Source of the DNA: a virus
Strand: one strand, 5' to 3'
DNA: 52,247 nucleotides
IMG/VR virus record: IMGVR_UViG_3300033463_000196
Span: 1 to 52,247 of that record
Position 1 is the stretch's first letter, and the number at the start of each line of letters is the position of its first letter. Both the position numbers and the translations under genes were made by a program. Shown piece by piece: positions 7,548 to 52,247 of this stretch. The notes beneath the pieces are model-generated. The model was given only the letters and a program-made list of their open reading frames with translations, searched no databases and had not been told where the DNA came from.

Positions 7548-10500
7548 TTAACTACGCTTTTTGTGGTTGTACTCTCTTTCGATAACTCCTACCAATTTCC
7601 GGCCCTCCAACTCAAAGCGGACTTTGCCGAAAATCTCACCTTGCGGCTCTACCATTTCGCGCAACTTATCTAACGGGGCCACTACTTCGGGGTTGTTGGT
7701 TGCCCCGGCGTACTCGCCAATAAGTGCCATCGTGGGGCCTGAAACAATACCGCCCTCTGCAAACGGCATTAACCCGATAGCCTGTACCATTGCAACGGCG
7801 GCGGCTGAAAAACCTGCACCGATACCAAAACCGGCAAACGGTATATAGGCGTGTGCGGCCATATACATAGCGGATGCAAGTTGTACGTAACTTGCGGTCA
7901 AAGCCTTATTTGCAATAATAGTCGGTATCGCTGCGGCGGCTGCAACCTCTTGCGCTGCGGCCTCAACGCCCTGTGTCGTAGTGGCCGTTACAATGGCTGC
8001 ACTCTCTGCGCCCTTGGCTATGGTGTGCGCTGTGGTGGCCGTCGTAAGCATATCTATAATACCTATTACGGTATTGATACCCTCGACTATCTGTATAAAG
8101 CCGTCCACGAAAGCCGTAACTTTCTGCCATGCGTTACCGTTGCCCTCTAAGGCGTTGCTTATGCTCTCGATACCGCTACCGATACCCTTAATACCATTCC
8201 AGCCGTCGCGTAGACTACCAAACGCGGAAATAGACTGCTTACGCCATTGCTCATAGACGGCAATCATACCCTCTATGTCTCGGCGCTGGCTGTCAGTAAC
8301 CGGGTTTTTGGTGTCGGCCAAAATCCTTTGCAGTTCCCGGATTTTCTTAGTAAGTTCATCAAAGCCGTAGCCCTTAATCCTTACTTTGTACTCACGACCT
8401 GAAAGCGCGTTTACCTCGGCTATCTCGCGTTGCATTTCGGGTAACTCGATACCCAACTGCAAAGACTTCTTTTTGGCTGTCAGTTCGTCGATAATGCGCT
8501 GTGTCTTTTGTATCTGGTCGGCATCTTCTTTTTGCTGACGTGCTGAATAGAACGAAATAGCCGCGTCTATGTCTTTGATGTTATTCGTAGTTGTCGGCAA
8601 ACTCATTGCCGCCAAAGCATCATCCCACTTTTCTTGCAACTCATTCAGGCGGTTAATACCGTTCTGTGCAAATTCCCGCTGTGCTTCGTCGCCTGACTTC
8701 AACAGGCGGTTATAGTATGCAAGTTTCTTGTTTAGTTGGTCGTAGGTTCGTATCTCTTCATCTTGCAACGCGGCTACGCTTTCATCTTCCAAAGCCTGTT
8801 TAGCGGCCTCTATGCGCTCTATTTCCGCGTCAATTTGTGCGATATTCTCCTTACTTGCCGTCCTGCGCTGATTACGTAGGGCCTGCAATTTCTTATCGTA
8901 ATCGTCTAAGGTGTTTAACTCTGTCGGCATCATTGCCGCGTCGGTCATATCCTTAAACGCCTTAACTGCATCCTCGGCGGCTTTCTTTGCCCGTGCAAGG
9001 GTCATAATGCGGTTAGTGTCGGTAATATCGCATTTCTCTAACTCCTGCTGATAATAAGCGACGTTATTAGTTAAGTCCTTATACGTCCGGGCGTTCTCAA
9101 TAAGCTGCTTATCTTCCTTGCCGCTCTTAGTCGGTTTGGTAGTCGTAGGATTAGGCCGGGTAGCACTACCTCTTACGCTAAAGTTAAGTTGGCTTGCCTC
9201 CTTAACCGCGTCCTGCATCTGCTCTTGTAAATGTGCAACAGCCGCCCGGTTATCCGCGATTTGTTGGTTTACCTTATCTAACTCACTCGTACCGGGTATC
9301 TCGAAATATTCTATGCTATTAACACCGCTATTCTGCAAAGCGTTCATAGCGTTACTGTTGCCGGTACGCTTAATTTGGCGTTGGCCTATTTCGCGTTCTG
9401 TACTATATAGTTTCTTCTTACCGCTTTCGTCGTAAATCAGGTTATGGGTTTCGGCCTCCTTTGCTGCAATCTGATTTGCAAGTGTACGGGTCTTAGCCTC
9501 CAAAACCATCTGTTTGCAATAGTCCTCGCTATTGGCTATCAGGGCTTCGTACCATGACGAAACGCTGGCAAAGTAGCCCATCGTATCGCCGTAGGTATCG
9601 TTAAGTTCGCCAACAAGTTTCTTTTCTTCCTTAGTAATGTCGGCCCCTGTAGCCTTTTTGTCTATCAGGTCTTTTAATTTCTTCTGATAGATATTTAGGG
9701 TAGATGCGGCGTTAGTATAAGCGTCGGCGGTTGCGCTTTCCAATTCACTTAACCGGCCCGCCTCTTCCTCGGCCAAACGTGCCTCCCGGTTAGCGGCTTT
9801 CATGCTATCGGTTGCATCGTCTGTTTTGCTTGCAAACAAAGAAACGATACCGGCTACCGCTGCGATAGCAAGGCCAACGCCTGTAACGGCCATAAGGCCC
9901 AAAATAGCGGCTCGCATTGCTATAGCCTGAACGGTGGCCAACTTCGCGCCAAACGTCCATGCGTACATAGCAACTTTGCCGTAATATAATTGTTTGGCCC
10001 AAAGGGCTTGCACGGCGGCGGCTACCTTACCGGCTGCGGACTGCGCCACCGTTACTACGGTCATACTCTTAATAGCACCTGTAGCCGCTACGACGGCTAC
10101 GTAGATACCTTTAATACCCTGCACCGTAGTACCAATGGCCATCAAAGCCATACCCATTTCACCGATAGCGACAATAGTAGGCTCTACGCTTCTAAACAAC
10201 GCGCCTACCTGCTCTTTTATATCGCCTATAGCGTTGGCGGCTTGCTTGGCCTTACCCGCGTCTGTCTTGGCTAACTCTTCATTCATGCCGCCTACGGCAC
10301 TACTTACTACCTCTGCTAAGACGGCGGCGCGTTCCGATTCCGTACCAAACTTTAGTATTTGCTCCTGGGCTTCGTCGAATTTGTAACCGTAGCGGGAAAG
10401 TGCGCCTACCTGTCCGTCCATCACCTTACCCAACATGGTAGCGATTTGCGCGGCTGCTTCGCTCGTAGCGTTCAAACCGTACTGCTGCGCTAACATATCG

Positions 10501-10946
10501 TTCATAACAGGTATGAGCGTTTCCAAACTTGTTTTCTTTTCAAGGTAGGTGGCTAACTCCTGTGCGCCCGCTAACTGCACTTCGTCACCGATAACGCCTA
10601 ACTGCTGCTGCGCTGCGCAAAGGTCTTTGATACTCTGTATTTCCTCTTCCCTTGCGCCCATCGTGTTACGCATATTGTTAGCCAACTTCGTTTCGGCCTC
10701 AACCTGCATAGCATTAGCGGCGGTAAACGTGCGCATAAGCCCGGTAAGCTGCTGCACACCTGTCAAAGCGTTTTGGAAAGACGCGCCTACTTGGGTAATC
10801 TTTAACAAATCATCCCTAAGTTTCGTCGATTCGGTACGGGCAATCTCCAACTCTTGCGCAAATTGCTTTACGTTGGTAGACGCGGTAACGATTTGCTCCT
10901 TACCGTCAATCGTTAGTCGTATGTTAAATTTTACGTCTTTTGACAT
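7548..10946 (-). CDS. Tail tape measure protein
   Basis: Largest ORF (1132 aa), directly after the G/GT chaperone pair. Long A/E/K/Q-rich helical stretches and Gly/Ala-rich hydrophobic segments (AIGTTVQGIKGIYVAVVAATGAIK, AAIPTIIANKALTASYV). Confidence 0.85.
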   Translation of the reverse strand: MSKDVKFNIRLTIDGKEQIVTASTNVKQFAQELEIARTESTKLRDDLLKITQVGASFQNALTGVQQLTGLMRTFTAANAMQVEAETKLANNMRNTMGAREEEIQSIKDLCAAQQQLGVIGDEVQLAGAQELATYLEKKTSLETLIPVMNDMLAQQYGLNATSEAAAQIATMLGKVMDGQVGALSRYGYKFDEAQEQILKFGTESERAAVLAEVVSSAVGGMNEELAKTDAGKAKQAANAIGDIKEQVGALFRSVEPTIVAIGEMGMALMAIGTTVQGIKGIYVAVVAATGAIKSMTVVTVAQSAAGKVAAAVQALWAKQLYYGKVAMYAWTFGAKLATVQAIAMRAAILGLMAVTGVGLAIAAVAGIVSLFASKTDDATDSMKAANREARLAEEEAGRLSELESATADAYTNAASTLNIYQKKLKDLIDKKATGADITKEEKKLVGELNDTYGDTMGYFASVSSWYEALIANSEDYCKQMVLEAKTRTLANQIAAKEAETHNLIYDESGKKKLYSTEREIGQRQIKRTGNSNAMNALQNSGVNSIEYFEIPGTSELDKVNQQIADNRAAVAHLQEQMQDAVKEASQLNFSVRGSATRPNPTTTKPTKSGKEDKQLIENARTYKDLTNNVAYYQQELEKCDITDTNRIMTLARAKKAAEDAVKAFKDMTDAAMMPTELNTLDDYDKKLQALRNQRRTASKENIAQIDAEIERIEAAKQALEDESVAALQDEEIRTYDQLNKKLAYYNRLLKSGDEAQREFAQNGINRLNELQEKWDDALAAMSLPTTTNNIKDIDAAISFYSARQQKEDADQIQKTQRIIDELTAKKKSLQLGIELPEMQREIAEVNALSGREYKVRIKGYGFDELTKKIRELQRILADTKNPVTDSQRRDIEGMIAVYEQWRKQSISAFGSLRDGWNGIKGIGSGIESISNALEGNGNAWQKVTAFVDGFIQIVEGINTVIGIIDMLTTATTAHTIAKGAESAAIVTATTTQGVEAAAQEVAAAAAIPTIIANKALTASYVQLASAMYMAAHAYIPFAGFGIGAGFSAAAVAMVQAIGLMPFAEGGIVSGPTMALIGEYAGATNNPEVVAPLDKLREMVEPQGEIFGKVRFELEGRKLVGVIEREYNHKKRS

Positions 10947-17899: not shown

Positions 17900-17930
17900 C
17901 AAAGATACACCTATTTTATGGGCGTTCAAA
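17900..17930 (-). promoter_or_regulatory. Consensus Bacteroidota promoter upstream of the portal gene
   Basis: Minus strand: TTTG (17930-17927), 19-nt spacer, TAtcTTTG (17907-17900), 22 nt before the ATG at 17877. Confidence 0.6.
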
Positions 17931-19476: not shown

Positions 19477-19508
19477 CAAAGGTATAGTTTTTTCTGTACT
19501 CTTGCAAA
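19477..19508 (-). promoter_or_regulatory. Consensus Bacteroidota promoter (leftward)
   Basis: Minus strand: TTTG (19508-19505), 20-nt spacer, TAccTTTG (19484-19477), about 50 nt before the ATG at 19426. Confidence 0.55.
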
Positions 19509-31190: not shown

Positions 31191-32387
31191 TTAGTCTCTT
31201 ATTAACATTGGCATTAACAGCATAGTTATTTCTTCGCTCAATGGCTGCACTCCCGGCTCAATGATAATCGCCCGGCTTTGGTCTACGATTCTAAACGTAG
31301 CCTCTGTAGCCGCAACTATGCTTTTTAGCAACTTGATTAAACGGAAATCTTGCAAACCAAATTTGAACGGCTCGCCGTAGTAACTACAGGGCAAAACCTC
31401 GGTAGCCGAAAGTGAAAAATCGTAATCGGCTGCATCCATCTTTACGCTGCCATTATTCAGGTATATAGTAATTAGCCCTGAATTGTTCGTGAATTGGCTA
31501 AGTCGCTCTAACGACTTTATCAGGGCTACGCGGTCGGTAGTAAAACCTTTGCTAAACTGCGTAGGTATCACGCTGTCGTAGTTAGGGTAGCGGCCTTCTA
31601 TCGGTCGGCCTACAATGGTCAAACCGTCTACGATAATCTGATATACCGGGGCGGGCTGTGGCTCTTTGCTGTCGGTTGGCCAATTCACATCGAAAGCGTT
31701 AAAGTCCATTTCGACAAAGCCGGTAGTCGGTAGTACCTTTTGCAAAATACCGATAATACGGCGCGGCAAAACAACGTCTGCCGGTTTCTCTGTCGTAATA
31801 GACTGCTTACGGATTTTCGCTAATACGTGGCCGTCGGATGCTACGAAATCGGTATGCTCCTTTTTCATGCTAATTATTATACCGTTCATTACCGGGCGTA
31901 AATCATCGTCGGCCATTGCAAACGCAAGGCGATTCAGGATAGAGCGTAACCCCGGTGCTTCCATTTCGATATGCTGCGCCGTGTCGTAGTTAATGGCCGG
32001 TTTTCTTCGTGCGCTGTAGTCCTCGATGCCCTCAAATATAGGCAAAGCAAAACTACCTATTGAGTGCCTGACGATAACCTGGTATTCCAATACGTCAAAC
32101 TCTAAACTCTGGCCGTCTAACGACTTAATGGCCGATATAAGTTGCTTGGCATTAACGGCAAACGTCTTTTTATCCGCTGTCGGGTTTCCTATGCTTACCG
32201 TCTCGCGCATATAAATTTCGCTGTTGCTCGTTTCTATAGTGAGTTGGTCGCAATCAGCCGTAAATATGTAGCACTTAAACACATCAAACCAACCGCCTTG
32301 CTTATAAGTTTCGCGGTATGTGATTACGGCGTTACGTGTCCGTTCCAACGCTCGTAATAGTGTATTCCTGTCTATCTGAAAATTCAT
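31191..32387 (-). CDS. dnaN: DNA polymerase III beta sliding clamp
   Basis: 398 aa. N-terminus MNFQIDRNTLLRALERTRNAVI and overall length typical of DnaN. Confidence 0.65.
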   Translation of the reverse strand: MNFQIDRNTLLRALERTRNAVITYRETYKQGGWFDVFKCYIFTADCDQLTIETSNSEIYMRETVSIGNPTADKKTFAVNAKQLISAIKSLDGQSLEFDVLEYQVIVRHSIGSFALPIFEGIEDYSARRKPAINYDTAQHIEMEAPGLRSILNRLAFAMADDDLRPVMNGIIISMKKEHTDFVASDGHVLAKIRKQSITTEKPADVVLPRRIIGILQKVLPTTGFVEMDFNAFDVNWPTDSKEPQPAPVYQIIVDGLTIVGRPIEGRYPNYDSVIPTQFSKGFTTDRVALIKSLERLSQFTNNSGLITIYLNNGSVKMDAADYDFSLSATEVLPCSYYGEPFKFGLQDFRLIKLLKSIVAATEATFRIVDQSRAIIIEPGVQPLSEEITMLLMPMLIRD

Positions 32388-32593
32388 AAATCTAACTGCT
32401 TTGTAAATAAATTAAGTTGTTTCGGGTACTCTACCGTTAGCGGGTAGGTGTAGGGTCTCTTTCCCGGCTTAGTGGCCATCATGCGGGCGCGGATAGCATC
32501 GGCGTTTTCCTTGCTACAGGCCCCGGATATGATTTCACGTTGGCCGGTTAGTCTGTTAATTGCCGTTACGCAATACTTTTTGTTCTCGTTCAT
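32384..32593 (-). CDS. Hypothetical protein
   Basis: 69-aa ORF with a 4-nt overlap with dnaN. Confidence 0.45.
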   Translation of the reverse strand: MNENKKYCVTAINRLTGQREIISGACSKENADAIRARMMATKPGKRPYTYPLTVEYPKQLNLFTKQLDL

Positions 32594-33134: not shown

Positions 33135-33152
33135 GCCCGGCTTTCGCCGGGC
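33135..33152 (-). promoter_or_regulatory. GC stem with GAAA tetraloop 3' of VR2 (DGR target-site hairpin candidate)
   Basis: Coding strand GCCCGGC-GAAA-GCCGGGC, 38 nt beyond the VR2 3' boundary. Confidence 0.6.
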
Positions 33153-33178: not shown

Positions 33179-33907
33179 CTAACTAATAAATGCTGAGACG
33201 GGCCGAACGTGAAGCGTGTACGAAGCCTTAGTGCCGCTGAAGGCGCCGCCGTAGTTGAGGTACAGAAGCCAGGCGCCCGACGCGCTGAGCTCGGTAGAAG
33301 TCCAATACCAATCGCCTTTAATCGGGTCGCTGCCTATCAGTTCCAAAGCCTGATTAAGTGCCTTACGATTCAGATAGATAAGGTACATTTCGCCCAAACT
33401 TGGGATATACTCGCCGTCGGCCAAAACGATTTCCTTATTAAGTCCAATGGCTTTCAGGTGTTCGGTATTGGCTTTGCCGTTCCAATCGGCTACCGCGTCC
33501 AAATAGTTATCTTTGTAACCGTCGTATTTGGTTATGTCCTTACCTGACGTTAGCGTAATCTCTTCGCCATCTGCTGCGTCGTGCAAAGCCACTTTGAGGC
33601 TACGGCTACCCCACTTAATACCTACGTATCTTACTTGGCTACCGTCTAAGCTGCCATCTACGCCCATATCGGGAATGAACGGTACTACGCTGCCGTCGGC
33701 CAAAACGTAGTAGATGCCATCGGGTAACTCTTCCATGATACCGCAAGGGCCGTTGGCTATTCCATCCCTTACCGGGGCCTTTGGCTTTGCTATCGGCTCT
33801 TCGGTTATCCAATCGAAAGCGGCCTTACAAAAGTCTACCGTTTCCGGCTTTTCGATGTTTGCGAACTTATCCAAAAGTTGCAACTTTAATTCTTGGTTCT
33901 CTGTCAT
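33179..33907 (-). CDS. DGR variable protein 2 (C-terminal DUF1566/C-type-lectin-like variable domain)
   Basis: 242 aa. C-terminus PSLGEMYLIY...WYWTSTELSASGAWLLYLNYGGAFSGTKASYTLHVRPVSAFIS carries VR2. Confidence 0.85.
   Translation of the reverse strand: MTENQELKLQLLDKFANIEKPETVDFCKAAFDWITEEPIAKPKAPVRDGIANGPCGIMEELPDGIYYVLADGSVVPFIPDMGVDGSLDGSQVRYVGIKWGSRSLKVALHDAADGEEITLTSGKDITKYDGYKDNYLDAVADWNGKANTEHLKAIGLNKEIVLADGEYIPSLGEMYLIYLNRKALNQALELIGSDPIKGDWYWTSTELSASGAWLLYLNYGGAFSGTKASYTLHVRPVSAFIS
33191..33297 (-). repeat. DGR variable repeat VR2
   Basis: 107 nt, colinear with the TR. 21 differences, all at TR plus-strand T (coding-strand A). Confidence 0.9.
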
Positions 33908-34498: not shown

Positions 34499-34543
34499 TC
34501 TTTCAGGGTGTTTAATTGTTAATATTTCGTTAAATTCTCGCTC

Positions 34544-34574
34544 TAAGCGCGTTTCTCGCGTCGGGTGTATAGTT
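34544..34574. repeat. 31-bp perfect direct repeat, copy 1 (core of a ~110-bp homologous element)
   Basis: taagcgcgtttctcgcgtcgggtgtatagtt is identical to 44826-44856. Flanks are about 70 percent similar, including the shared tttctaccgt. Confidence 0.9.
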
Positions 34575-34773
34575 TATCACCTTGCGGCTTTTCTCGCGGC
34601 CTACGTCGTTTCTACCGTTTTACGTCTACAAATTCCAAAGCCATATAGCGGACTTGATACCCAAAACGATTAAGTCTACGACTATCAGGGCAGCGATAAT
34701 AACGCCGAAACAGCCTAAACTACAACCGGCCAAATCTTTTGCATCTTCTTTCATATTTCCTAAGTTTTAATTG

Positions 34774-36729
34774 TTAGTCTTTCAGATAGTACGGTGTAGT
34801 GTACCCTGCGCCTTTCAGGGGTAGGTCTCTGCACCATTCAATCGGTTTGCTAAACAGGGCCTCAACGTCGGCCAAAGTTTGGTCGGGCGTGGCCTCTACT
34901 ACTATTTCATCGTGAATGTGGAAAACCACGTTAAGCCCTGCGGCCTTGGCGCGTAGTATTACGATGCCTAAGATGTCACGGGCTACGGCCTGTACTATGT
35001 TCTCGGTAAGTTTACCGCCGTAGGTACGTACCTTGCCCCATTTCTTCGTAGTCTGGTTAAGGCCCTCGTACTCTATTATTTCGTGGTCGCCTCGCCATCC
35101 ATCGTTATACTCTGTGCCTATTTCAGCGCGTGGGTAACAGATAGTGCGCCCTGACGGTAACGTAATAGTAAGCATACCCCAACGCTTGCCGATAACGATA
35201 TTACGATATACCGTTACGCTCTCGCCGGTCTTAATGGCCGTCAAAGCCGCCCTTTCTATAACGCTCCACATCTTGACTATACGCGGGTTGCTGTCACGCC
35301 AAAGGGCTACAATCTGTTTTTCTTCGGCTTCGGTAAGTCCTAACCGGCTACCGCCCATCGCTTCCAAAGCCGAAACGCCGCCACCGTAGCCCAAAGCCAA
35401 AGTAGCAATCTTTCCCTTTTGGCGTAGTTCCGCGTTTTGTCCGTGCTTCTCTACGGGTACTTTGAACATCTTAGAGGCGTTGGCGCAATAGATGTCGCCG
35501 TTAGTCCTGAAAACGTCTAATACCCATTCTTCACCGGCCAACCATGCAATAACCCTGCACTCGATAGCCGAAAAGTCGCAAACGTGGAAAGTGTGGCCGG
35601 GCGCGGCAATAAACGCCGTGCGTATCAACTCGCTAAGTACGAAAGTGACGTTACCGTAGTTTAGTTCAAACTCTTCTAAGTCGCCCTGACGTACTAAACT
35701 GCGGGCGTAGTCCAAACTCTCCAAATGGTTTTGCGGTAGGTTCTGCACCTGTACCAACCTACCGGCCCATCGGCCTGTACGTGCTGCGCCGCAAAACTGC
35801 AAAAGTCCATGTATTCGGCCATCGTTGCAGACGCATTTCTGCATAGCCTCGTATTTCTTGTTAGAGGTCTTACCCATTTCCCGGCGTATAGCCAAAACCT
35901 GCTGCGCCTTGGGCCAATAGATAAGTTTCTTATCCAAATCGTCTAAGTTGGCTTTGTTGAGGCTTGCAACGGTAAAGCCCGTTACCTTGTGTAGCCAATC
36001 CTTAATCTGCGCCGGGCTGTTGGGGTTATCCATGCCGGTAAGCTGCTGCGCCTGTTTCAGTAGTTCGGCCTTATACTCTTCGTCAAACCGGGCGGCTGCA
36101 TCTACCAAAACGCGGTCTATCATCACGCCCCGGTCGTTAATTTCTTGGTCGGCTACGTACAAATCTTCGTCAAAGGCGGCGGGCTTTAGACGCTGTACCT
36201 TTTTCTTAATGGCTTGTTCTACCTCAACGTCTCTAATATTGTACTCTTTGAATACCTGCCACCTGTCGGGCGCGTCGCTTGGTAGATGCCGTTTGCCTGT
36301 CTTTGGCGCGGGTACGCTAAAGTATCTAATCAGGGCTTTACCCTCTGTCATTTTGCCCTCTGCCAAACGTAGCACCTCGCCGCATTGCCCCAACGAAAGC
36401 GGTAAGCCCATCCGGGCGGCTAATACCATCGTGCAACGCCATTGCGCCGGGTCTAAGAGTTTACCCCCAAAGAAATAGACGCTAATACAGATTCTTTCAA
36501 AGGCGGCGTTAAACGCGGTCTTGATAACGTCCGGGTCTGTCAGGGCTGCAAATACATCGTCGGGCAATTTCTCGCCCTGTGCTAAGTCAACGCAAAGCAC
36601 CGGCCCGCCATCAACACTATACGCGAAAAGCAATATAGCAAAGTCCGGGGCCTCAACGTACTTGTAAACGCCACAATTAACCAAATCGTTACTGCTGTAC
36701 GTTTCTATGTCTATTCCTAATTCTCGCAT
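34774..36729 (-). CDS. Family A DNA polymerase with N-terminal 3'-5' exonuclease domain
   Basis: 651 aa. GIDIETYS (Exo I-like), RQKGKIATLALGYGGG (motif B-like), HIHDEIVVE (motif C). Confidence 0.85.
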   Translation of the reverse strand: MRELGIDIETYSSNDLVNCGVYKYVEAPDFAILLFAYSVDGGPVLCVDLAQGEKLPDDVFAALTDPDVIKTAFNAAFERICISVYFFGGKLLDPAQWRCTMVLAARMGLPLSLGQCGEVLRLAEGKMTEGKALIRYFSVPAPKTGKRHLPSDAPDRWQVFKEYNIRDVEVEQAIKKKVQRLKPAAFDEDLYVADQEINDRGVMIDRVLVDAAARFDEEYKAELLKQAQQLTGMDNPNSPAQIKDWLHKVTGFTVASLNKANLDDLDKKLIYWPKAQQVLAIRREMGKTSNKKYEAMQKCVCNDGRIHGLLQFCGAARTGRWAGRLVQVQNLPQNHLESLDYARSLVRQGDLEEFELNYGNVTFVLSELIRTAFIAAPGHTFHVCDFSAIECRVIAWLAGEEWVLDVFRTNGDIYCANASKMFKVPVEKHGQNAELRQKGKIATLALGYGGGVSALEAMGGSRLGLTEAEEKQIVALWRDSNPRIVKMWSVIERAALTAIKTGESVTVYRNIVIGKRWGMLTITLPSGRTICYPRAEIGTEYNDGWRGDHEIIEYEGLNQTTKKWGKVRTYGGKLTENIVQAVARDILGIVILRAKAAGLNVVFHIHDEIVVEATPDQTLADVEALFSKPIEWCRDLPLKGAGYTTPYYLKD

Positions 36730-41641: not shown

Positions 41642-41673
41642 TTTGGCGGAAAAGAAAAACTGCCGTATCTTTG
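41642..41673 (+). promoter_or_regulatory. Consensus Bacteroidota promoter, rightward (towards the repressor gene)
   Basis: TTTG (41642-41645), 20-nt spacer, TAtcTTTG (41666-41673). Confidence 0.55.
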
Positions 41674-41757: not shown

Positions 41758-41789
41758 CAAAGATAGACGTTTTCGGGTAAACTACCAAA
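41758..41789 (-). promoter_or_regulatory. Consensus Bacteroidota promoter, leftward (early lytic operon)
   Basis: Minus strand: TTTG (41789-41786), 20-nt spacer, TAtcTTTG (41765-41758). Confidence 0.55.
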
Positions 41790-43483: not shown

Positions 43484-44695
43484 ATGGCAAAATCTACCTT
43501 ACGACTTGATACCCGCCGCCCTTTGAAAGATGGTACTTACCCGGTGCAAATCGTTGTCGGCTACGGTACAAACATCTATCTAAGCACCGGGATATACATA
43601 GCCCCTGACGAATGGGATAGCGTTACGAAACGCTGCACCGGCAAAGGCGCAAAGAAACTTAACGACGTGCTTACTACCCTGCTAACGTCTGTTGGTAGCC
43701 GTATTTTTGACTTGATGGAAAACGGGCAATGGCGTAAACTCACGCGCCCGCAAATTAAGGAAATGCTTACCAACTTGGACTTAGACAAACCTACTATCGG
43801 CGTACCGTCTATCTACGACCTTATACAGAAAACTTTAGAGGGCCGGGCAAGCGGTACAAAGTACATAGCCAAAACCGCTATTATCAGGCTTAACAAATTC
43901 TGTGGGGATTCCACAAAACTATATTGCGAACAAATAACCCCGGTGTGGATAGACGATTATTATACGTCGCTCTCTGACTTGGCCGTTAATACCCGTGCCG
44001 CCTATATCAAAGTCCTACGCCGGGCGTTTAACTATGCCCTCGACCATGATATTACGACTAATAACCCATTCAGGCACTACAAAGTCAAAACAGAAGAAAC
44101 GCGGATGCGCGTATTACCTGTAGAGAAAATGCGCCAACTCGTAAACCTCGAAACGCGCTACCATTATACAGAATACCGCGATTTGTTCATGCTTTCTTTC
44201 TATCTTATCGGTATCAACTTGGCCGATTTGTCGAAACTCACCCCGGAAAGCATCGTAAACGGGCGTATAGAATACCGGCGGGCAAAGACGGGCAAACTCT
44301 ATAGCATTAAGATAGAGCCGGAGGCGCAAGCCATTTTGGATAAGTACAAAGGCGAAAAATATCTGCTAAGTATGTTTGACCGCTGCACCAACGCCAAAGC
44401 CTATCAGGGTACGTTAGACAATGCGCTGGCGCGTATAGGGCCACCGATAGACGAAAAGCATAAGAACGGCCAACCGAAACTAAAACCGATAGACAAGAAA
44501 CTAAGTTGGTATTGGGCGCGTTATTCGTGGGCCACCTATGCCGCTGAATTGGATATACCAAAGGACACTATCAGCGAAGCGTTAGGCCACTCTCACGGCG
44601 CAAGGGTAACGGGTATCTACATTAAGTACAACCGGGATAAGGTAGACGCGGCAAACCGCAAAGTCATAGACTACGTGTTAGGAAATGGCAAATAA
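43484..44695 (+). CDS. int: Tyrosine recombinase/integrase
   Basis: 403 aa. N-terminal arm-binding-like domain, RRAKTGK (catalytic Arg region), ALGHSHGARVTGIYIKY (HxxR...Y). Confidence 0.85.
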   Translation: MAKSTLRLDTRRPLKDGTYPVQIVVGYGTNIYLSTGIYIAPDEWDSVTKRCTGKGAKKLNDVLTTLLTSVGSRIFDLMENGQWRKLTRPQIKEMLTNLDLDKPTIGVPSIYDLIQKTLEGRASGTKYIAKTAIIRLNKFCGDSTKLYCEQITPVWIDDYYTSLSDLAVNTRAAYIKVLRRAFNYALDHDITTNNPFRHYKVKTEETRMRVLPVEKMRQLVNLETRYHYTEYRDLFMLSFYLIGINLADLSKLTPESIVNGRIEYRRAKTGKLYSIKIEPEAQAILDKYKGEKYLLSMFDRCTNAKAYQGTLDNALARIGPPIDEKHKNGQPKLKPIDKKLSWYWARYSWATYAAELDIPKDTISEALGHSHGARVTGIYIKYNRDKVDAANRKVIDYVLGNGK

Positions 44696-44825
44696 CTTAC
44701 CATGTCCTGATAACGTGTTAAGAAATCGCGTTTTTCTTGTTATATTTGGCCGTCGGCGGCAAAAAGTGGCGTTTGTCGCCGATTTAGGCGTTACTAAGTG
44801 TTAAAATTTCGCCGAAAATCGTTTT

Positions 44826-44856
44826 TAAGCGCGTTTCTCGCGTCGGGTGTATAGTT
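44826..44856. repeat. 31-bp perfect direct repeat, copy 2
   Basis: Identical to 34544-34574. Lies 130 nt past the int stop, between the convergent int and lysis genes. Confidence 0.9.
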
Positions 44857-44977
44857 ATAACCCCAACGGCCTTTAACGCGCTCTACGGCCATTTCTACCG
44901 TCTTAGGTTTGAAAAATGCCTGCTCTATCCTCTCGGACTGCGCGGGCAAAGCACTATATTACAGAAAACACTAATCA

Positions 44978-46521: not shown

Positions 46522-46671
46522 TCATTTCTTATATAGTTCTATTACTATGTCGTTATCGCGTTGCTCAATCAAAACCACATACCGGGTTTCTAATAAGTGC
46601 AAAAGGCCCATGTCTATTACATCAACGCGCAATGTAACTGGGTCTTTGGGCTGTACTTCAATAATCGCCAT
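46522..46671 (-). CDS. Small hypothetical protein
   Basis: 49-aa ORF (MAIIEVQPKDPVTLRVDVIDMG...) that exactly fills the RT-holin gap. Its start overlaps the RT 3' end. Hand translated. Confidence 0.3.
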   Translation of the reverse strand: MAIIEVQPKDPVTLRVDVIDMGLLHLLETRYVVLIEQRDNDIVIELYKK

Positions 46672-47848
46672 CACGTATTCTTTTATATGTCTGTATTCTC
46701 TTCTTATATTTGTTCTTTAGTGCCACTATCTCATAGCGGCCTTTTATGTAGATATATTCGTATGCAGGTCGCTCTATCATGCCTAAGACTTTCTTACGCA
46801 TACCGTATTCGTTGTGGTGTCGTAACAAGCCCAAATAACTGTTTATAGAGCAAACAGCGTGCTCAACTTGCCGTAATGTCTTGGCGTTGTTTAACCGCCT
46901 GACGGCTGCAATAAAGTTGGTTATTGTGCGGTTGCAACAATACGACGTTTTGGGCTTTACGACGGCCCCGGTAAACTCTACGCCCTTGGTGTAGTGCTGA
47001 AAGTAGAATTTCTTAGGATTCAGGGTTAGGCCAAATTCGGCCAACTTATCCCGTATCAATGGCACGGCGTTAAGTAGTACGGCCTTATCTTGGTGTATGC
47101 AATAGAAATCATCTACGTAGCGGCCATGATACTTAATGCCTATTTCTTCCAAAAACCAATCAAATTCATTTAACAGGAAATTGGCGAATAGTTGCGCAAA
47201 CAGGTTGCCGATAGCAACGCCTTTGCCCTCGCCGTTAGTGAATAGCGATTTATTGGCGGGTAGGTAATCCCAATAATGCGCCGGGCTGTGTTTCTCGCAA
47301 TTCTTTTCGGGGCAATGTAAAACGACTATTCGGCAAAGGTAGCGCAAATCGTCTATGTCGCTGCCGGTATAGTATTGAGTAATAAAGCGGTCTATCAGGT
47401 CGGCTAACAGGGCTTTGTCGATGCTCATAAAAAAGCCCTGTAGGTCTAATTTCATAATCCAACAAGTCCGGGTATAGTTCTCGCTGCAATCCCTAATATC
47501 CTGCTTTAGAATATTGATACCGTAAAGCTGCCCTTTCTCCTTACGGCAATTAAAAGTACGCGGACTAAACACCAACTCAAAAAGCGGCTCTAACCGTAGG
47601 GCTATATAGTGGTGTACTATTCTATCTTCAAAGGAGGCGGCAAACACTTCACGATACCGGGGCCGCGTTACGACAAAGCAAATAGACTTTCCGGGCTGAT
47701 AGACGCGGTTGTTAATCCTATCGCGTAAGGCGATAAGTTTAGTTTCGTAGTCCATTTCGTAGACTATCGCGCTTGCCGTGTGGCGTTTGCGCCGTCGGCA
47801 ATCGTAATACGCTTTTAAAAGTCCATCAGTCGTTACCATATCTGACAA
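46658..47848 (-). CDS. DGR reverse transcriptase
   Basis: 396 aa. GRYVDDFYCIH (YxDD catalytic box), LDLQGFFMSID (motif 2-like), VAIGNLFAQLFANF (resembles the DGR-RT IGxxxSQ motif). TTG at 47848, or ATG at 47839. Confidence 0.9.
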   Translation of the reverse strand: MSDMVTTDGLLKAYYDCRRRKRHTASAIVYEMDYETKLIALRDRINNRVYQPGKSICFVVTRPRYREVFAASFEDRIVHHYIALRLEPLFELVFSPRTFNCRKEKGQLYGINILKQDIRDCSENYTRTCWIMKLDLQGFFMSIDKALLADLIDRFITQYYTGSDIDDLRYLCRIVVLHCPEKNCEKHSPAHYWDYLPANKSLFTNGEGKGVAIGNLFAQLFANFLLNEFDWFLEEIGIKYHGRYVDDFYCIHQDKAVLLNAVPLIRDKLAEFGLTLNPKKFYFQHYTKGVEFTGAVVKPKTSYCCNRTITNFIAAVRRLNNAKTLRQVEHAVCSINSYLGLLRHHNEYGMRKKVLGMIERPAYEYIYIKGRYEIVALKNKYKKRIQTYKRIRDGDY

Positions 47849-47882: not shown

Positions 47883-47989
47883 TGCTGAGACGGGCCGAAC
47901 GTGATTCGTGTTCGATGCCTTAGTGTTGTTGTTGGCGTTGCCGTTGTTGAGGTTCAGATTCCAGGCGTTCGTCGCGCTGTTCTCGGTTG
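47883..47989 (-). repeat. DGR template repeat (TR), non-coding
   Basis: 107 nt between avd and RT. In the VR frame it reads PTENSATNAWNLNLNNGNANNNTKASNTNHVRPVSA (12 AAY codons, 37 adenines). No ORF covers it. Confidence 0.9.
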
Positions 47990-48079: not shown

Positions 48080-48469
48080 TTAACTTTCCGATTCCGGCTT
48101 ACTCGCTTTTGTAAGTGAGTTTTTCCACGCTGTACTTTGCTTTCCTATTGCGTCCATCAGTTCAATGATATGTGCGTGCCGCCCTATTCCCTTAATCCAA
48201 CGTCTTTCGCCCGCTACCCTGATTAGGGTTTTAAGCGTCTCGAATTTGGCTTTGAAACTCATTAAGTTTTGTACCCTGCCCGTCTTATCCATGTAGGCCG
48301 CTGCATCTAATTCTATCAGGCTAACAGATAGTCTTTGCATTTCTGCGCCGATAGTAAACTTATAGTCACGCGGAAAGTTGGGCGTAACGTCTAATATCTC
48401 ATTGAGTAACGCCCTGCAATCTAAGTATAGTTGCGTAGTAGATACTAACTTAATCGGTTTGTCTGCCAT
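48080..48469 (-). CDS. avd: DGR accessory variability determinant (Avd)
   Basis: 129-aa basic, helix-rich ORF in the canonical position between the target gene and the TR. Confidence 0.7.
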   Translation of the reverse strand: MADKPIKLVSTTQLYLDCRALLNEILDVTPNFPRDYKFTIGAEMQRLSVSLIELDAAAYMDKTGRVQNLMSFKAKFETLKTLIRVAGERRWIKGIGRHAHIIELMDAIGKQSTAWKNSLTKASKPESES

Positions 48470-48490: not shown

Positions 48491-48512
48491 GTTCCCGGCT
48501 TTCGCCGGGAAC
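48491..48512 (-). promoter_or_regulatory. GC stem with GAAA tetraloop 3' of VR1 (DGR target-site hairpin candidate)
   Basis: Coding strand GTTCCCGGC-GAAA-GCCGGGAAC, 32 nt beyond the VR1 3' boundary. Confidence 0.6.
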
Positions 48513-48532: not shown

Positions 48533-49297
48533 TTAAGCAATAAATGCTGAGACGGGCCGAACGTGATACGTGGTCGATGCCTTAGGGTTGCGGTTGGCGC
48601 TGCCGAGGAGGCCCAGAAGCCAGGCGTTCGTCGCGCTGAACTCGGTCGAAGTCCAATAACCGGCCTCTGCCAACTGCGTTGCGCCACTAATCAGCGAAAG
48701 CGCGTAGTTAATCTTTGTCATGTTGGCGTAAATCATCATCATTTCGCCCAAAGATGGTAGCCACCACTTACCGGCTGTCAGGCCCTTAGAGTTGGCGTTT
48801 ACGCGGCTGTAGTTCGCACAATATCCGGGGGCGTAGGCGTTGCTACTACATTCGGCGTGCGTAATCTGTGCCGTCGTGTTTGCTTTACCGGCCCAATCGT
48901 TCAAAGCCGTAACGCGGTCTGACGTGGTTACGCCGCCACCGCTAACGGCTGCGCTACTCCATGTCATAGACGATTCGGTAGGCGCAACGATAAGGATTTT
49001 GCCACCCTCTACGATGGCTACGCCGTCGGCCACTTCGCCGCCACTCTGTAGGCTTGGCCACTTGTGGGGTTTTACCATTACGGGGTAATCGTCTTGTTTA
49101 CGATGGTACATAATGAAAACGCCGTCCATCTGTACGTTTTGGTCTACACCGCCATTCATAGCCGCTTTCAGGTTTGCAAGCGAAATGGGGATTAACTTAC
49201 CGCTGCTATCCCGCATAAGGATTCGGTCGGTGCTGTTGACGGTCGTAACGTCTGTTACGCTGCTGTCATTCAATTTTTTTGTTTGCTTAACTGCCAT
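48533..49297 (-). CDS. DGR variable protein 1 (C-terminal DUF1566/C-type-lectin-like variable domain)
   Basis: 254 aa. WWLPSLGEMMMIY...GYWTSTEFSATNAWLLGLLGSANRNPKASTTYHVRPVSAFIA carries VR1. Confidence 0.85.
   Translation of the reverse strand: MAVKQTKKLNDSSVTDVTTVNSTDRILMRDSSGKLIPISLANLKAAMNGGVDQNVQMDGVFIMYHRKQDDYPVMVKPHKWPSLQSGGEVADGVAIVEGGKILIVAPTESSMTWSSAAVSGGGVTTSDRVTALNDWAGKANTTAQITHAECSSNAYAPGYCANYSRVNANSKGLTAGKWWLPSLGEMMMIYANMTKINYALSLISGATQLAEAGYWTSTEFSATNAWLLGLLGSANRNPKASTTYHVRPVSAFIA
48545..48648 (-). repeat. DGR variable repeat VR1
   Basis: 104 nt. 15 substitutions relative to the TR, all at TR plus-strand T, plus loss of one TTG (coding CAA/AAC register) unit. Confidence 0.9.
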
Positions 49298-49737: not shown

Positions 49738-52247
49738 TTATAGGTAAATCCAATCGTTAAAGTTCATCAAGAAGAAATTAAACGCGCCGTCGTTTCGGCT
49801 ATCATCGTCTGCCGTCTGAACGGTTATAGACGTTTTCGTTTGCGATTTTACGGACGCATATAGCGGATTACTACCGCTGTCAATAACGCCGTAGCCGCAT
49901 ACCATTACAAAAACGTGTCCTGCATCTGCATACCAATTATTATTACTCCATGATAAGGTATAAATACCTTGGCCGTCTCTTGTAACTGACATTGTGCTAC
50001 CGTCGAAAGTATGATAAGATACGCTTGCCCCGCTACTTGAACCTGTAACGCGGCCAACGGCTAACATCTTCATGTGGTGGCCGTAGCGGGATTCTGTGCC
50101 TAAGTCTATTCGCTTTAGCACAATCCAACCGTAGAAACTATTATTATCGCCGTAACCTAACAACTCTACGGCCTCGCGGCTTAACTTGATAGTAGATTTC
50201 TGTATGCCATCTTCATAGAAATATTTACCCGTCGGGGCTGTTAGTTGAGCGTACCCGGATGCCGTCGAATAACTACCGTTCCAATAGTAGTTAGTGATAA
50301 CTACCTTACGGCCTGACTGGTCGGTAGTCCACGGCAAAGCGTAATCGGATGCCGACGCGCTGTAAACGGCTATGTTGTCCGAAAAGTCATTGCCAAACGT
50401 ACCGCCACGTCCTAAGTACGTGAACGGGCTACGCACACCGCCTCTTACATATACGTCGCCCTGATATGTTTTGCCGGTAAGCAAATCAAGCGCGTAGTAT
50501 GGGGCAAAATTCTTTTCTTCCAAAGTAACGGTGTTAACCGTACCTGATAGCCCGTTAGGGTTGTATATCTCCAAATAATACGTACCGCTTTCCGTTGGCT
50601 TAATGTAGCCTGCGCGTGTTACCGCCGACGTGCTGTTAATCAATACAGGCGAATAGGTAGTGCCGGTAGACGTGTTGCGTACTCTTATGTAATAGCCTGT
50701 TGAACTGCTGCCGTAGCCTTTGGCCGATAAGTAATAAACTTTTCCGGCCTCCAAAGTTAGCGTAGTCCATGACTTAGTAGTGTTACTGCTTGTAAATGAG
50801 TAATCGCTACCATAAGCATACTTTGCTAAGTATTTGCCTAACGGGTTGTTTGGATTAAACAGGGAATAAGCGGTAATACCCTGATAGGTTGCGCCGTTAT
50901 CGTAGGCCGTACCGTCTATAGTTCCGTTGGTGCTTATCATCCAATCGCCGCTAATTCTTGCACTACCAAAATAGCCGTGTTGGGCAAACAGGATATTAGC
51001 GGCTACTAATCCCATTTTCGTAGATAACTGCCAAAGGCCGTTATTGGTGTCGTAGGTACTACCCGGATAGTTTGAGGCGGTTTTTGTGTGCGTCTTAATA
51101 CACTTGTAGTAATTGCCGTTATATACTACAAAATCTTCGTAAGGCTCACCGTCTGCGCCTTTGTAAAATTGAAAATCCAACTCGGCTTGCGTCCAATCCT
51201 GCGGGCCGCGTAATCCGGGGCCTCTATAGCCTCGCGGGCCTTGGCTACCCGTGCCGCCCGTTGGCCCCTGTGGGCCTTGGGGGCCGGTGTTGCCCTGCTT
51301 CTTAACGATAATCTCACATTTGGCTAAGTACGCCTGCCCTGCCGGGTTTGTGTCGGTGTACGCGCTGCTAAACATGAAAATTACTACCGCGTCGTAGCCT
51401 GTATAGACGTTGGCCTTTATGTTTACGCCATCATCAAAGCCGTTATTTATGTAGGTACTATTATACATCGTTAAGAGCGCGTAAGTAGTACCCGTGCGGG
51501 AATAGACGGCAAAACGGCAAGTATGGGCCTGACGTGCCGCCGTTCCTGCCTTACGATAAAAGGCTGCTGAACAATTAAGCGTAGCACTATCAGCGTCGGA
51601 CGCTATAGTTACGTTTCCTACGGTGCAAGCGATTTCGTAGGTTACGCCGTCGTTACCATTTGGCCCCTGTGGGCCTTCTGGCCCTGTATCTCCATAAACA
51701 CCTATAATAACGGGGTCTGTGTTTGCCGTACTACCGTCTGTATAGGTTACGGTCTCATAGTTCCAAAGGTATTTCTTTGTTGCCGTAACGCTCTGAACGC
51801 TCGTAGTCCATCCCGACGTAGAGCGCGTAACGCCTGACGATGCAGACGTAGCAAGGTAGTATTCAGTTATAGACGAAATGCCTACGCCGGTATCACCAAA
51901 GCGGCCAATGATAGCGGGCGTTGTGTCTACGTGTGTACCGTCTGTGTAGTTTATGCGCTCGTAGTTCCAAAGGTACTTTTTCGTCTTGGTCATTGTGGCC
52001 GCTGTAGCCGTCGGGTCTGTAGTCCATCCCGTCGTAGATGTAGTAACGCCTGAACTTGACGAACTCGCTAAGTAGTATTCGACTACCGACGAAATACCGT
52101 TGCCGGTATCGCCCTTGTCACCATAAACACCTATAATAACGGGGTCTGTGTTTGCCGTACTACCGTCTGTATAGGTTACGGTCTCATAGTTCCAAAGGTA
52201 TTTCTTTGTTGCCGTAACGCTCTGAACGCTCGTAGTCCATCCCGACG
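49738..52247 (-). CDS. Tail fibre protein, C-terminal segment (collagen-like Gly-X-Y tracts plus large C-terminal domain)
   Basis: The frame is open from 52247 down to the stop at 49738. I translated 51994-52247 and found no stop. GDTGPEGPQGPNGNDG and GNTGPQGPQGPTGGTGSQGPRGYRGPGLRGPQ are collagen-like. Confidence 0.75.
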   Translation of the reverse strand, partial: SGWTTSVQSVTATKKYLWNYETVTYTDGSTANTDPVIIGVYGDKGDTGNGISSVVEYYLASSSSSGVTTSTTGWTTDPTATAATMTKTKKYLWNYERINYTDGTHVDTTPAIIGRFGDTGVGISSITEYYLATSASSGVTRSTSGWTTSVQSVTATKKYLWNYETVTYTDGSTANTDPVIIGVYGDTGPEGPQGPNGNDGVTYEIACTVGNVTIASDADSATLNCSAAFYRKAGTAARQAHTCRFAVYSRTGTTYALLTMYNSTYINNGFDDGVNIKANVYTGYDAVVIFMFSSAYTDTNPAGQAYLAKCEIIVKKQGNTGPQGPQGPTGGTGSQGPRGYRGPGLRGPQDWTQAELDFQFYKGADGEPYEDFVVYNGNYYKCIKTHTKTASNYPGSTYDTNNGLWQLSTKMGLVAANILFAQHGYFGSARISGDWMISTNGTIDGTAYDNGATYQGITAYSLFNPNNPLGKYLAKYAYGSDYSFTSSNTTKSWTTLTLEAGKVYYLSAKGYGSSSTGYYIRVRNTSTGTTYSPVLINSTSAVTRAGYIKPTESGTYYLEIYNPNGLSGTVNTVTLEEKNFAPYYALDLLTGKTYQGDVYVRGGVRSPFTYLGRGGTFGNDFSDNIAVYSASASDYALPWTTDQSGRKVVITNYYWNGSYSTASGYAQLTAPTGKYFYEDGIQKSTIKLSREAVELLGYGDNNSFYGWIVLKRIDLGTESRYGHHMKMLAVGRVTGSSSGASVSYHTFDGSTMSVTRDGQGIYTLSWSNNNWYADAGHVFVMVCGYGVIDSGSNPLYASVKSQTKTSITVQTADDDSRNDGAFNFFLMNFNDWIYL
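51692..51888. repeat. 197-bp perfect repeat inside the fibre gene (second copy spans the window junction)
   Basis: 51692-51818 equals 52121-52247, and 51762-51888 equals 1-127. Both copies encode the same ~66-aa fibre repeat. Confidence 0.9.

Follow-up and report, generated by a model that had tools for sequence, protein, structure and literature searches.

The virus record IMGVR_UViG_3300033463_000196 of IMG/VR, analysed here over its whole length of 52,247 nucleotides (the window), carries a complete diversity-generating retroelement (DGR) on its minus strand, in the order VP1, Avd, template repeat (TR) and reverse transcriptase (RT), with the TR between the Avd and RT genes. VP1 is the target protein beside the cassette, taken as a receptor-binding protein of the tail region, and contains the variable repeat VR1. 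Another variable repeat, VR2, forms the end of the VP2 gene, which is located inside the replication module (Table 1). A first-pass annotation of the same DNA had proposed a second DGR target about 15 kb from the cassette, ending an open reading frame (ORF) of 242 amino acids (aa) between the polymerase A (PolA) and sliding-clamp genes. The ORF list and the Pfam and PHROG assignments of the neighbouring genes agree with this placement, the distance from VR2 to the TR was measured as 14.7 kb, and VR2 is very probably a working second target of the only DGR of this phage.

Table 1. Coordinates of the DGR, its targets and neighbouring genes in the window.
Feature	Position	Strand	Remarks
VP2 gene	33179..33907	minus	242 aa; ends in VR2; between PolA and sliding clamp
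VR2, variable repeat of the remote target	33191..33297	minus	last ~36 VP2 codons
IMH-like invariant 3' end of VR2 (putative)	33191..33211	minus	CACGTTCGGCCCGTCTCAGCA; identical in TR and VR1
GC-rich hairpin after VR2	33135..33152	minus	GCCCGGC-GAAA-GCCGGGC (coding strand); 7-bp stem
TR	47883..47989	minus	37 adenines; 10 AAC and 2 AAT codons when read in the VR frame
VR1	48545..48648	minus	104 nt; 3-nt deletion relative to TR; 15 mismatches, 15/15 at TR adenines
Hairpin after VR1	48491..48512	minus	GTTCCCGGC-GAAA-GCCGGGAAC
VP1 gene, cassette-proximal target	48533..49297	minus	254 aa; DUF1566/Lcl_C; directly after tail-fibre genes
Avd accessory protein	48080..48469	minus	Pfam bAvd, E=1.3e-24; phrog_3206 ('Avd protein of DGR')
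DGR reverse transcriptase	46658..47848	minus	Pfam RVT_1, E=6e-17; phrog_1423, E=2.9e-76
Family A DNA polymerase (PolA)	34774..36729	minus	three small ORFs between PolA and VP2
DnaN-type sliding clamp	31191..32387	minus	downstream of VP2; Pfam DNA_pol3_beta domains; phrog_947
Integrase	43484-44695	plus	PHROG scan

The template repeat and the variable repeats

In a direct comparison at an offset of 14692, VR2 and the TR share 86 of 107 positions without a gap. Each of the 21 mismatches falls on a T of the plus strand, that is, an A of the coding minus strand, and the probability that all 21 coincide with TR adenines by chance is 1.3e-12 (hypergeometric; 37 A in 107 nt). The colinearity over 107 nt and the list of 21 adenines given in the first-pass annotation were reproduced exactly. 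Read in the VP2 frame, the TR shows the classic AAC-rich design of DGR templates, and VR2 departs from the TR-encoded protein at 12 residues.

In the window the 21-mer CACGTTCGGCCCGTCTCAGCA has exactly three copies, one each in VR2, TR and VR1, with 0 copies expected in shuffled sequences, and homology stops right after it: both VRs read on with TTTATT and the TR with CTTCTT. It is a putative unmutated GC-rich 3' boundary at which TR homology ends, resembling the initiation of mutagenic homing (IMH) element. The paralogy of VP1 and VP2 over about 150 aa might suggest that the likeness between TR and VR2 arose by recombination or gene conversion between the two lectin domains, and not by reverse transcription. 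Such exchange is hardly credible, however, as it would neither limit 21 of 21 differences to the adenines of a non-coding template, nor end at an identical 21-mer in three copies, nor yield an A-only pattern in independent genomes. Codon-sized indels occur in the VRs, since VR1 is one codon short, VR2 of the relatives L002 and L152 shows a 3-nt alignment gap against the window TR, and some variants of the VP2 protein family have one additional VR residue.

Both VRs are followed at near-equal distance by a GC hairpin with a GAAA loop, and none follows the TR. The VR2 hairpin begins 26 nt past the stop codon and 38 nt past the end of TR homology, and it is not a terminator because no T-run lies behind it on either strand. 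Among 87 homologous loci having sufficient downstream sequence, 72 contain a hairpin 14-34 nt past the stop codon (in 52 of the 72 with a GAAA loop), and the stem variants are compensatory across loci (GCCCGGC/GCCGGGC, GCACGGC/GCCGTGC, GCCCGCC/GGCGGGC). A hairpin element of this kind was defined in phage BPP-1 by Guo et al. (2011; PMC3240598), who described 7-10 bp GC stems with GRNA loops located 4-34 bp from the VRs in other phage DGRs and found that transplanting the IMH and the hairpin sufficed to retarget a DGR. The VR2 hairpin fits the target element with a 4-nt GRNA loop described there.

Homologues of VP2 are numerous (1170 at E<1e-5), and several clusters at 90% identity have dozens to hundreds of members. 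The closest of these proteins, at 93-95% identity, differ almost exclusively in the last ~35 aa. At the DNA level the window was compared with five relatives (L002, L003, L151, L152 and L153), whose VP2 is 81-95% identical, four of them at 92-95%. Their VR2 differs from that of the window at 15-24 of 107 positions, 13-21 of these at TR-adenine sites, while the other 622 nt of the gene contain only 10-38 differences. As VR1 shows matching counts in these relatives (18-25 differences, 13-23 at adenine sites), both repeats are similarly heterogeneous across samples. The ratio of non-synonymous to synonymous substitution rates (dN/dS) is 0.07-0.18 in the lectin core (aa 63-203) and 1.1-3.0 in the VR, indicating that the core is under purifying selection. 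Isolates provide the sharpest contrast: over a span of 2190 nt that includes the PolA 3' end, a small ORF and the remote target, only 16 substitutions distinguish the cultured phages Bacuni F1 and F2, and all 16 are within the remote VR at TR adenines. Bacuni F4 is identical to F1 across the span from the PolA 3' end to the remote target. In four further contigs containing the RT, the TR and a remote VP2, the VR matches the contig's own TR, with predominantly adenine mismatches.

These comparisons, which document diversification between genomes (near-identical contigs and isolates), indicate that VR2 is an active target and not a fossil. The first-pass annotation had left room for a fossil copy, in which VR2 would be monomorphic while VR1 varies; between near-identical genomes VR2 varies as much as VR1. 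A duplicated VP1 C-terminus or TR copy that is no longer rewritten by the DGR would account for the distance of VR2 from the cassette, and activity cannot be seen in a single genome. Such a relic is nevertheless very unlikely, considering that the VR2 differences of near-identical genomes lie mainly at TR-adenine sites, at a level equal to VR1, that isolates F1 and F2 differ in the remote VR alone, and that the IMH-like end and the hairpin of VR2 are intact and conserved with compensatory changes. Decay would moreover add non-A mismatches to the TR, and their count is 0.

By analogy with the BPP-1 model, the TR beside the RT gene would be transcribed and copied into cDNA by RT and Avd with misincorporation opposite adenines, and this diffusible cDNA would replace either VR1, beside the cassette, or VR2, 14.7 kb away. 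Recognition of VR2 in trans would rest on cis signals that it shares with VR1, namely the GC-rich IMH-like 3' segment and the 7-bp GC hairpin with its GAAA loop. In this way the DGR would rewrite the last ~36 residues of the VP2 lectin-fold domain. The steps are borrowed from BPP-1; the present analysis contributes the sequence signatures and the natural variation.

The VP2 protein and its genomic neighborhood

VP2 is an acidic protein of 26.5 kDa (pI 4.65) that matches VP1 over aa 95-242 with 38% identity (BLASTP, E=5e-23). The motifs cited in the first-pass annotation as parallel to VP1 are present, but the shared part covers about 150 aa and not about 100. The N-terminal half had been described as unrelated to VP1, and indeed the first ~94 aa match neither VP1 nor any other ORF of the window (phmmer); a search with the N-terminal 100 aa against 1.84 billion representatives returned only family members and spurious repeats. 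The better of two structural models and the family alignment agree on a layout with two helices (~aa 3-15 and 24-35), a linker (aa 39-56) that is variable in length and rich in Pro, Ala and acidic residues, and a conserved domain extending from DGIYY to the VR. As noted earlier, no signal peptide is apparent, nor is a transmembrane segment (maximum Kyte-Doolittle mean over 19 residues, 1.14; N-terminus, 0.07), which says little since virion proteins need no signal peptide. The composition of VP2 shows no GC anomaly. A candidate clamp-binding motif, QLLDKF, was rejected because more distantly related members of the family do not keep its residues.

Sequence comparison suggests that the C-terminal domain of VP2 belongs to the DUF1566/Lcl_C group of C-type-lectin folds. 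VP1 matches Pfam PF07603 (Lcl_C) with 30.2 bits, below the gathering cut-off of 34.9 bits, and many VP2 homologues carry a precomputed PF07603 match. Searched against the PDB, the VP2-family profile retrieves 8q4e (Lcl_C-type, from a Legionella Lcl study; E=1.2e-5) and 4eps (Bacteroides pilin-like; E=0.0095). In PHROG, VP2 matches phrog_4245, of unknown function, and no tail family.

Several observations weigh against VP2 being a working lectin-fold target. Its own Lcl_C match reaches only 17.9 bits (E=0.004) against the cut-off of 34.9 bits. AlphaFold models have a pLDDT (predicted local distance difference test) of 54.8 with 64 sequences and 69.9 with 96 more diverse sequences, with the VR region below 50, and a Foldseek search of these models against the PDB gave no match at E<1. 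The lectin fold of VP2 is thus argued from sequence profiles and homology to VP1, the models being mediocre and the Foldseek match absent. In addition, activity of VR2 in the window genome itself is inferred from its relatives, and the evidence on the function of VP2 is circumstantial either way.

The start codon of VP2 lies 6 nt behind the stop codon of the upstream ORF. Scans for sigma-70 promoters and terminators around VP2 found fewer sites than in shuffled sequence and no minus-strand terminator. The Bacteroides promoter consensus TTTG-N17-23-TAnnTTTG has no match near VP2 and occurs only in the early divergent and packaging regions; lone -7 boxes near VP2 were discarded as unconvincing promoters. 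In the whole window this consensus has 5 matches (1.6 expected). Two full matches, 41642-41673 (plus) and 41758-41789 (minus), stand back to back in the gap that separates the early operon from the lysogeny genes and look like divergent early promoters, and two further matches are located in the packaging/head region (19477-19508 and 17900-17930, minus).

According to PHROG scans of 30 further ORFs, the early/replication block extends from ~41.6 kb down to 24.7 kb and encodes an exonuclease, a Gp2.5-like single-stranded DNA-binding protein (SSB), PolA, VP2, the clamp, two methyltransferases, a primase-helicase and a SNF2-type helicase. It is followed by TerL, portal, protease, major capsid protein, major tail protein, putative tape measure and distal tail proteins; the size and location of the 1132-aa ORF at 7548-10946, which has no PHROG match, suggest that it encodes the tape measure. 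The map ends with a tail-fibre gene, then VP1 and the DGR, and endolysin, so that VP1 belongs to the tail-fibre/lysis region. The phage is a temperate Bacteroidales phage with a siphovirus-like map. A reading frame remains open across the joined window ends (1-592 plus 49738-52247, minus), and repeats of ~205-215 nt occur at both ends (1-367 and 51681-52247). The window probably represents a genome, either closed into a circle or permuted, that was opened within a long repetitive tail-fibre gene, which would exceed the listed 751-aa ORF.

Other small features accompany these genes. A 69-aa ORF (32384-32593, minus), upstream of and overlapping the clamp gene, ends in ...YPKQLNLFTKQLDL; its QLNLF is a canonical beta-clamp-binding pentapeptide, and the ORF, whose homologues precede the clamp in related contigs, may encode a small phage clamp-binding protein. 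Directly behind PolA there is an unlisted 42-aa ORF (34626-34754, minus; MKEDAKDLAGCSLGCFGVIIAALIVVDLIVLGIKSAIWLWNL) that contains one hydrophobic helix. A repeated intergenic element of ~60-90 nt occurs between PolA and the ORFs before VP2 (34535-34625) and between the integrase and lysis-side genes (44817-44907), both on the minus strand. The copies are 79% identical over 62 nt (core, TATACACCCGACGCGAGAAACGCGCTTA), are conserved solely in the nearest relatives and have no Rfam match; that at 44817-44907 folds at -32 kcal/mol. Rfam and tRNA scans of the window detected no RNA genes.

The neighborhood of VP2 is widely conserved. Among the loci found via VP2, about 70 of 90 include the exonuclease, SSB, PolA, 0-2 small ORFs, VP2, the clamp and/or methyltransferases, the primase-helicase and TerL. 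Anchoring on PolA, which does not presuppose VP2, gave 79 informative related contigs, of which 72 contain a VP2-family gene downstream of PolA (at 25-1728 nt, median 351) and 7 do not, although PolA identity falls to ~74% and VP2 identity to ~41%. The slot beside PolA therefore seems old and stable and the gene dispensable. Whether related phages keep the remote target at this position had been raised as a check in the first-pass annotation, and these contigs bear it out. In many relatives the VP2 gene adjoins DNA methyltransferases. The nearest relatives of the window are contigs from sheep rumen, and prophage copies are found in genomes of Prevotella, Muribaculaceae and Bacteroides.

The N-terminal region varies within the family: some relatives are devoid of the N-terminal helices and some have a different N-terminal domain. 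A 271-aa form (L098-L101, e.g., L098 1439-2254) starts with a different N-terminal domain of ~90 aa; the DUF3310 label is attached only to a structure-alignment note on gp76 of phage BS-TP1, and not to this form. In several genomes a Cys-rich small ORF upstream of VP2 is in frame with it, giving ORFs of 292-310 aa (L004 4914-5792; L015 8087-9019), and VP2-family protein clusters of 292-308 aa exist. IMGVR_UViG_3300011002_000583 (L019, 54.7 kb) has an RT 99% identical to that of the window, and its TR is near-identical as well. Scans based on VP2, PolA or the helicase did not retrieve this contig, which was read only in part; it may pair the DGR cassette seen here with another replication module.

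The family also occurs outside this group of phages. BS-TP1 (PQ571274), a cultured 111-kb Bacteroides myovirus unrelated to the window phage, has a DGR in its tail module on the minus strand, in which the target gene gp27 (6.5 kb) is accompanied by gp26, encoding an Avd of the four-helix-bundle type, by the TR and by the RT gene gp25. Its VP2-family gene, gp76, is on the plus strand, opposite to the structural genes and ~50 kb from the TR, in a non-structural arm with numerous small ORFs and with genes for a dUTPase, a ligase, a Lar-like anti-restriction protein and an RNA ligase. Compared with the tail-module TR, the matching 3' end of gp76 has mismatches inside the repeat (ATTGGTCTTCC...CTGCTGTAGC) only at TR adenines, which identifies gp76, on sequence grounds, as a remote target of the tail-fibre DGR. 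In BS-TP1-like phages the remote VP2-family gene is followed, two genes further on, by an RT-like gene with a weak phrog_1423 match (BS-TP1 gp79, L017 8338-9600; likewise L011 11605-12933). No local TR was found beside gp79, the matching TR being the one in the tail module, and the small gene between gp76 and gp79 is not recognizably Avd; the gp79-type gene could be what is left of a second DGR, or it could belong to another kind of retroelement. A further homologue, labelled DUF3988, is encoded among early-type genes of the 151-kb phage csAssE-Sib (OR575929; L018 6719-7555), with 30% identity over aa 52-227. Its 3' end has no second copy in that genome, so it is a non-diversified protein and not a DGR target.

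The possible role of VP2

The first-pass annotation had called a diversified protein placed among replication genes unexplained, and with respect to its biological role the description holds; the existence of remote targets as such was already documented (see below). Tentatively, and at somewhat less than an even chance, VP2 may be a conventional virion component, that is, an accessory ligand binder serving as a second receptor-binding or adhesion protein, attached via its N-terminal helices and encoded outside the structural module. The DUF1566 lectin scaffold and the same TR are common to VP2 and VP1 of the tail-fibre module, and a short helical N-terminus with a flexible linker, as modelled, would suit docking. 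The Mtd protein of BPP-1, a characterized phage DGR target, is a receptor-binding protein. Passages in two surveys likewise identify the characterized phage DGR targets as receptor-binding proteins (PMC8144416; PMC5758913), and the authors who described the Bacuni phages treat both targets as adhesion proteins, modelled on a pilus-tip adhesin (Hedzet et al., 2021; PMC8143477).

Other features do not conform to a tail fibre or receptor-binding protein. VP2 is located in the replication module, matches no PHROG tail family and has an N-terminus without similarity to the structural proteins of the window; the gene stays beside PolA in 72 of 79 related contigs, with no Bacteroides-type promoter or terminator between it and the replication genes, and the BS-TP1 copy belongs to a non-structural arm, its strand being the one that does not encode the structural genes. 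In the published comparison F2 differs from F1 by 15 single-nucleotide polymorphisms in the secondary VR and shares its host; F4, which infects a different strain, is distinguished by the VR next to the cassette (Hedzet et al., 2021). Against a virion role, F1 and F2 have the same host despite the 16-nt difference in the remote VR, and F1 and F4, with different proximal VRs, infect different hosts.

Alternatively, VP2 would be a diversified binder outside the virion, made together with the replication (early/middle) genes and acting in the cell or upon release by lysis, for example against variable host factors or defence proteins. This remains a doubtful proposal, to which a lower likelihood is given; the rest is left to other roles. 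In its favor are the position in a replication or early block, conserved in the Bacuni-like clade and in BS-TP1-like myoviruses, the non-diversified csAssE-Sib homologue in an early-like region, the proximity of DNA methyltransferases in many relatives, the 6-nt gap to the upstream ORF with no promoter or terminator found, and the unchanged host of F1 and F2 after the change in the remote VR. On the other hand this evidence is positional only, the N-terminus gives no functional hint, the possible clamp-binding motif is not conserved and an intracellular phage DGR target is not known to have a precedent. Across three phage lineages, the location of the gene is consistent with a non-structural role.

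A broader proposition, that the VP2 family constitutes a distinct class of non-virion DGR targets in at least two unrelated lineages of Bacteroidales phages, on which a tail-fibre TR acts in trans for counter-defence inside the cell, is considered improbable. If true, the members would be small lectin-fold binders, encoded and expressed along with replication or early genes, that act within the infected cell, or on the envelope from inside, against variable host factors such as defence or restriction proteins, and the family would represent an antibody-like counter-defence repertoire on the side of the phage. Independently of this, a small DUF1566 protein kept downstream of a DNA polymerase across a large clade is a testable exception to the tail-fibre rule for phage DGRs, and the cultured Bacuni F1 and F2 and BS-TP1 make the non-structural placement directly testable.

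Comparison with known DGR systems

The remote-target arrangement is already published. Hedzet et al. (2021) reported a 'distant' DGR target just downstream of PolA in Bacuni F1, F2 and F4, and passages of Wu et al. (2018; PMC5758913) mention 'many examples' of phage DGRs having an adjacent and a non-adjacent target within 50 kb. The suggestion in the first-pass annotation that a remote target is unusual or undescribed is thus not sustained: the orthologous Bacuni target is in the literature, and non-adjacent targets within prophages are reported to be common (PMC5758913). The window contributes a rumen-derived case, the slot beside PolA in 72 of 79 contigs and a VP2-family remote target in the unrelated myovirus BS-TP1.

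The Bacteroides phages Bacuni F1, F2 and F4 are the nearest relatives in culture and provide the best database matches (VP2 44-46% identical over 90% of its length). By sequence and synteny VP2 is identified as an orthologue of their 'distant' target, which in F1 (Bacuni_F1_00026, QMS42043.1) is 44% identical over aa 24-241 (E=5e-55). Both genomes have, in the same order, an exonuclease, SSB, PolA, small ORF, DUF1566 target, methyltransferase and primase in one region, and a DUF1566 target, Avd, TR and RT beside tail and lysis genes in another; the remote VR of F1 differs from the F1 TR only at adenines, as in the window. The GC hairpin of the Bacuni remote target has a GCAA loop in place of GAAA, the genomes are ~72% identical at the nucleotide level over just 37-42% of the replication region, and the N-terminal ~60 aa of VP2 are almost unrelated. 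In the window, unlike in Bacuni, VP2 is separated from the methyltransferases by the sliding clamp and additional small ORFs, and the window derives from rumen-type samples, whereas Bacuni comes from human stool.

The DGR of Bordetella phage BPP-1 (mtd-avd-TR-brt), the prototype of these systems, shares with the window the adenine-specific transfer from TR to VR, the Avd and RT pair, the VR at the C-terminus of a protein with a C-type-lectin fold (predicted for the window), the IMH-type 3' boundary and the GAAA-loop GC hairpin behind the VR (PMC3240598). For BPP-1, experiments have shown that a VR separated from the cassette is acted upon in trans (PMC5758913). BPP-1 has one adjacent target, a tail-fibre tip protein with the Mtd fold, whereas the window has two DUF1566/Lcl_C targets, the remote one being placed with the replication genes at a distance of 14.7 kb.

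The class of systems surveyed by Wu et al. (2018) resembles the window in having two targets in one prophage, one of them not beside the cassette; unlike those treated in the passages concerned, the non-adjacent target described here occupies a fixed, conserved slot after PolA. The pipeline of Roux et al. (2021; PMC8144416) is, by their own account, blind to remote targets, and according to the tentaclin paper (PMC10743442) little information exists on phages that have two or more targets. Tentaclin DGRs also have two functionally different targets, the joint mutagenesis of which is called unclear in that paper; in contrast to the window, both targets belong to the cassette, one VR is 5'-terminal and the protein families are unrelated. 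BS-TP1, finally, differs from the window in phage type and replication genes, and the GC hairpin after gp76 has a TTTTT loop and not a GNRA one, yet gp76 belongs to the VP2 family (42% identity over aa 63-240) and, like VP2, is encoded away from the structural genes.

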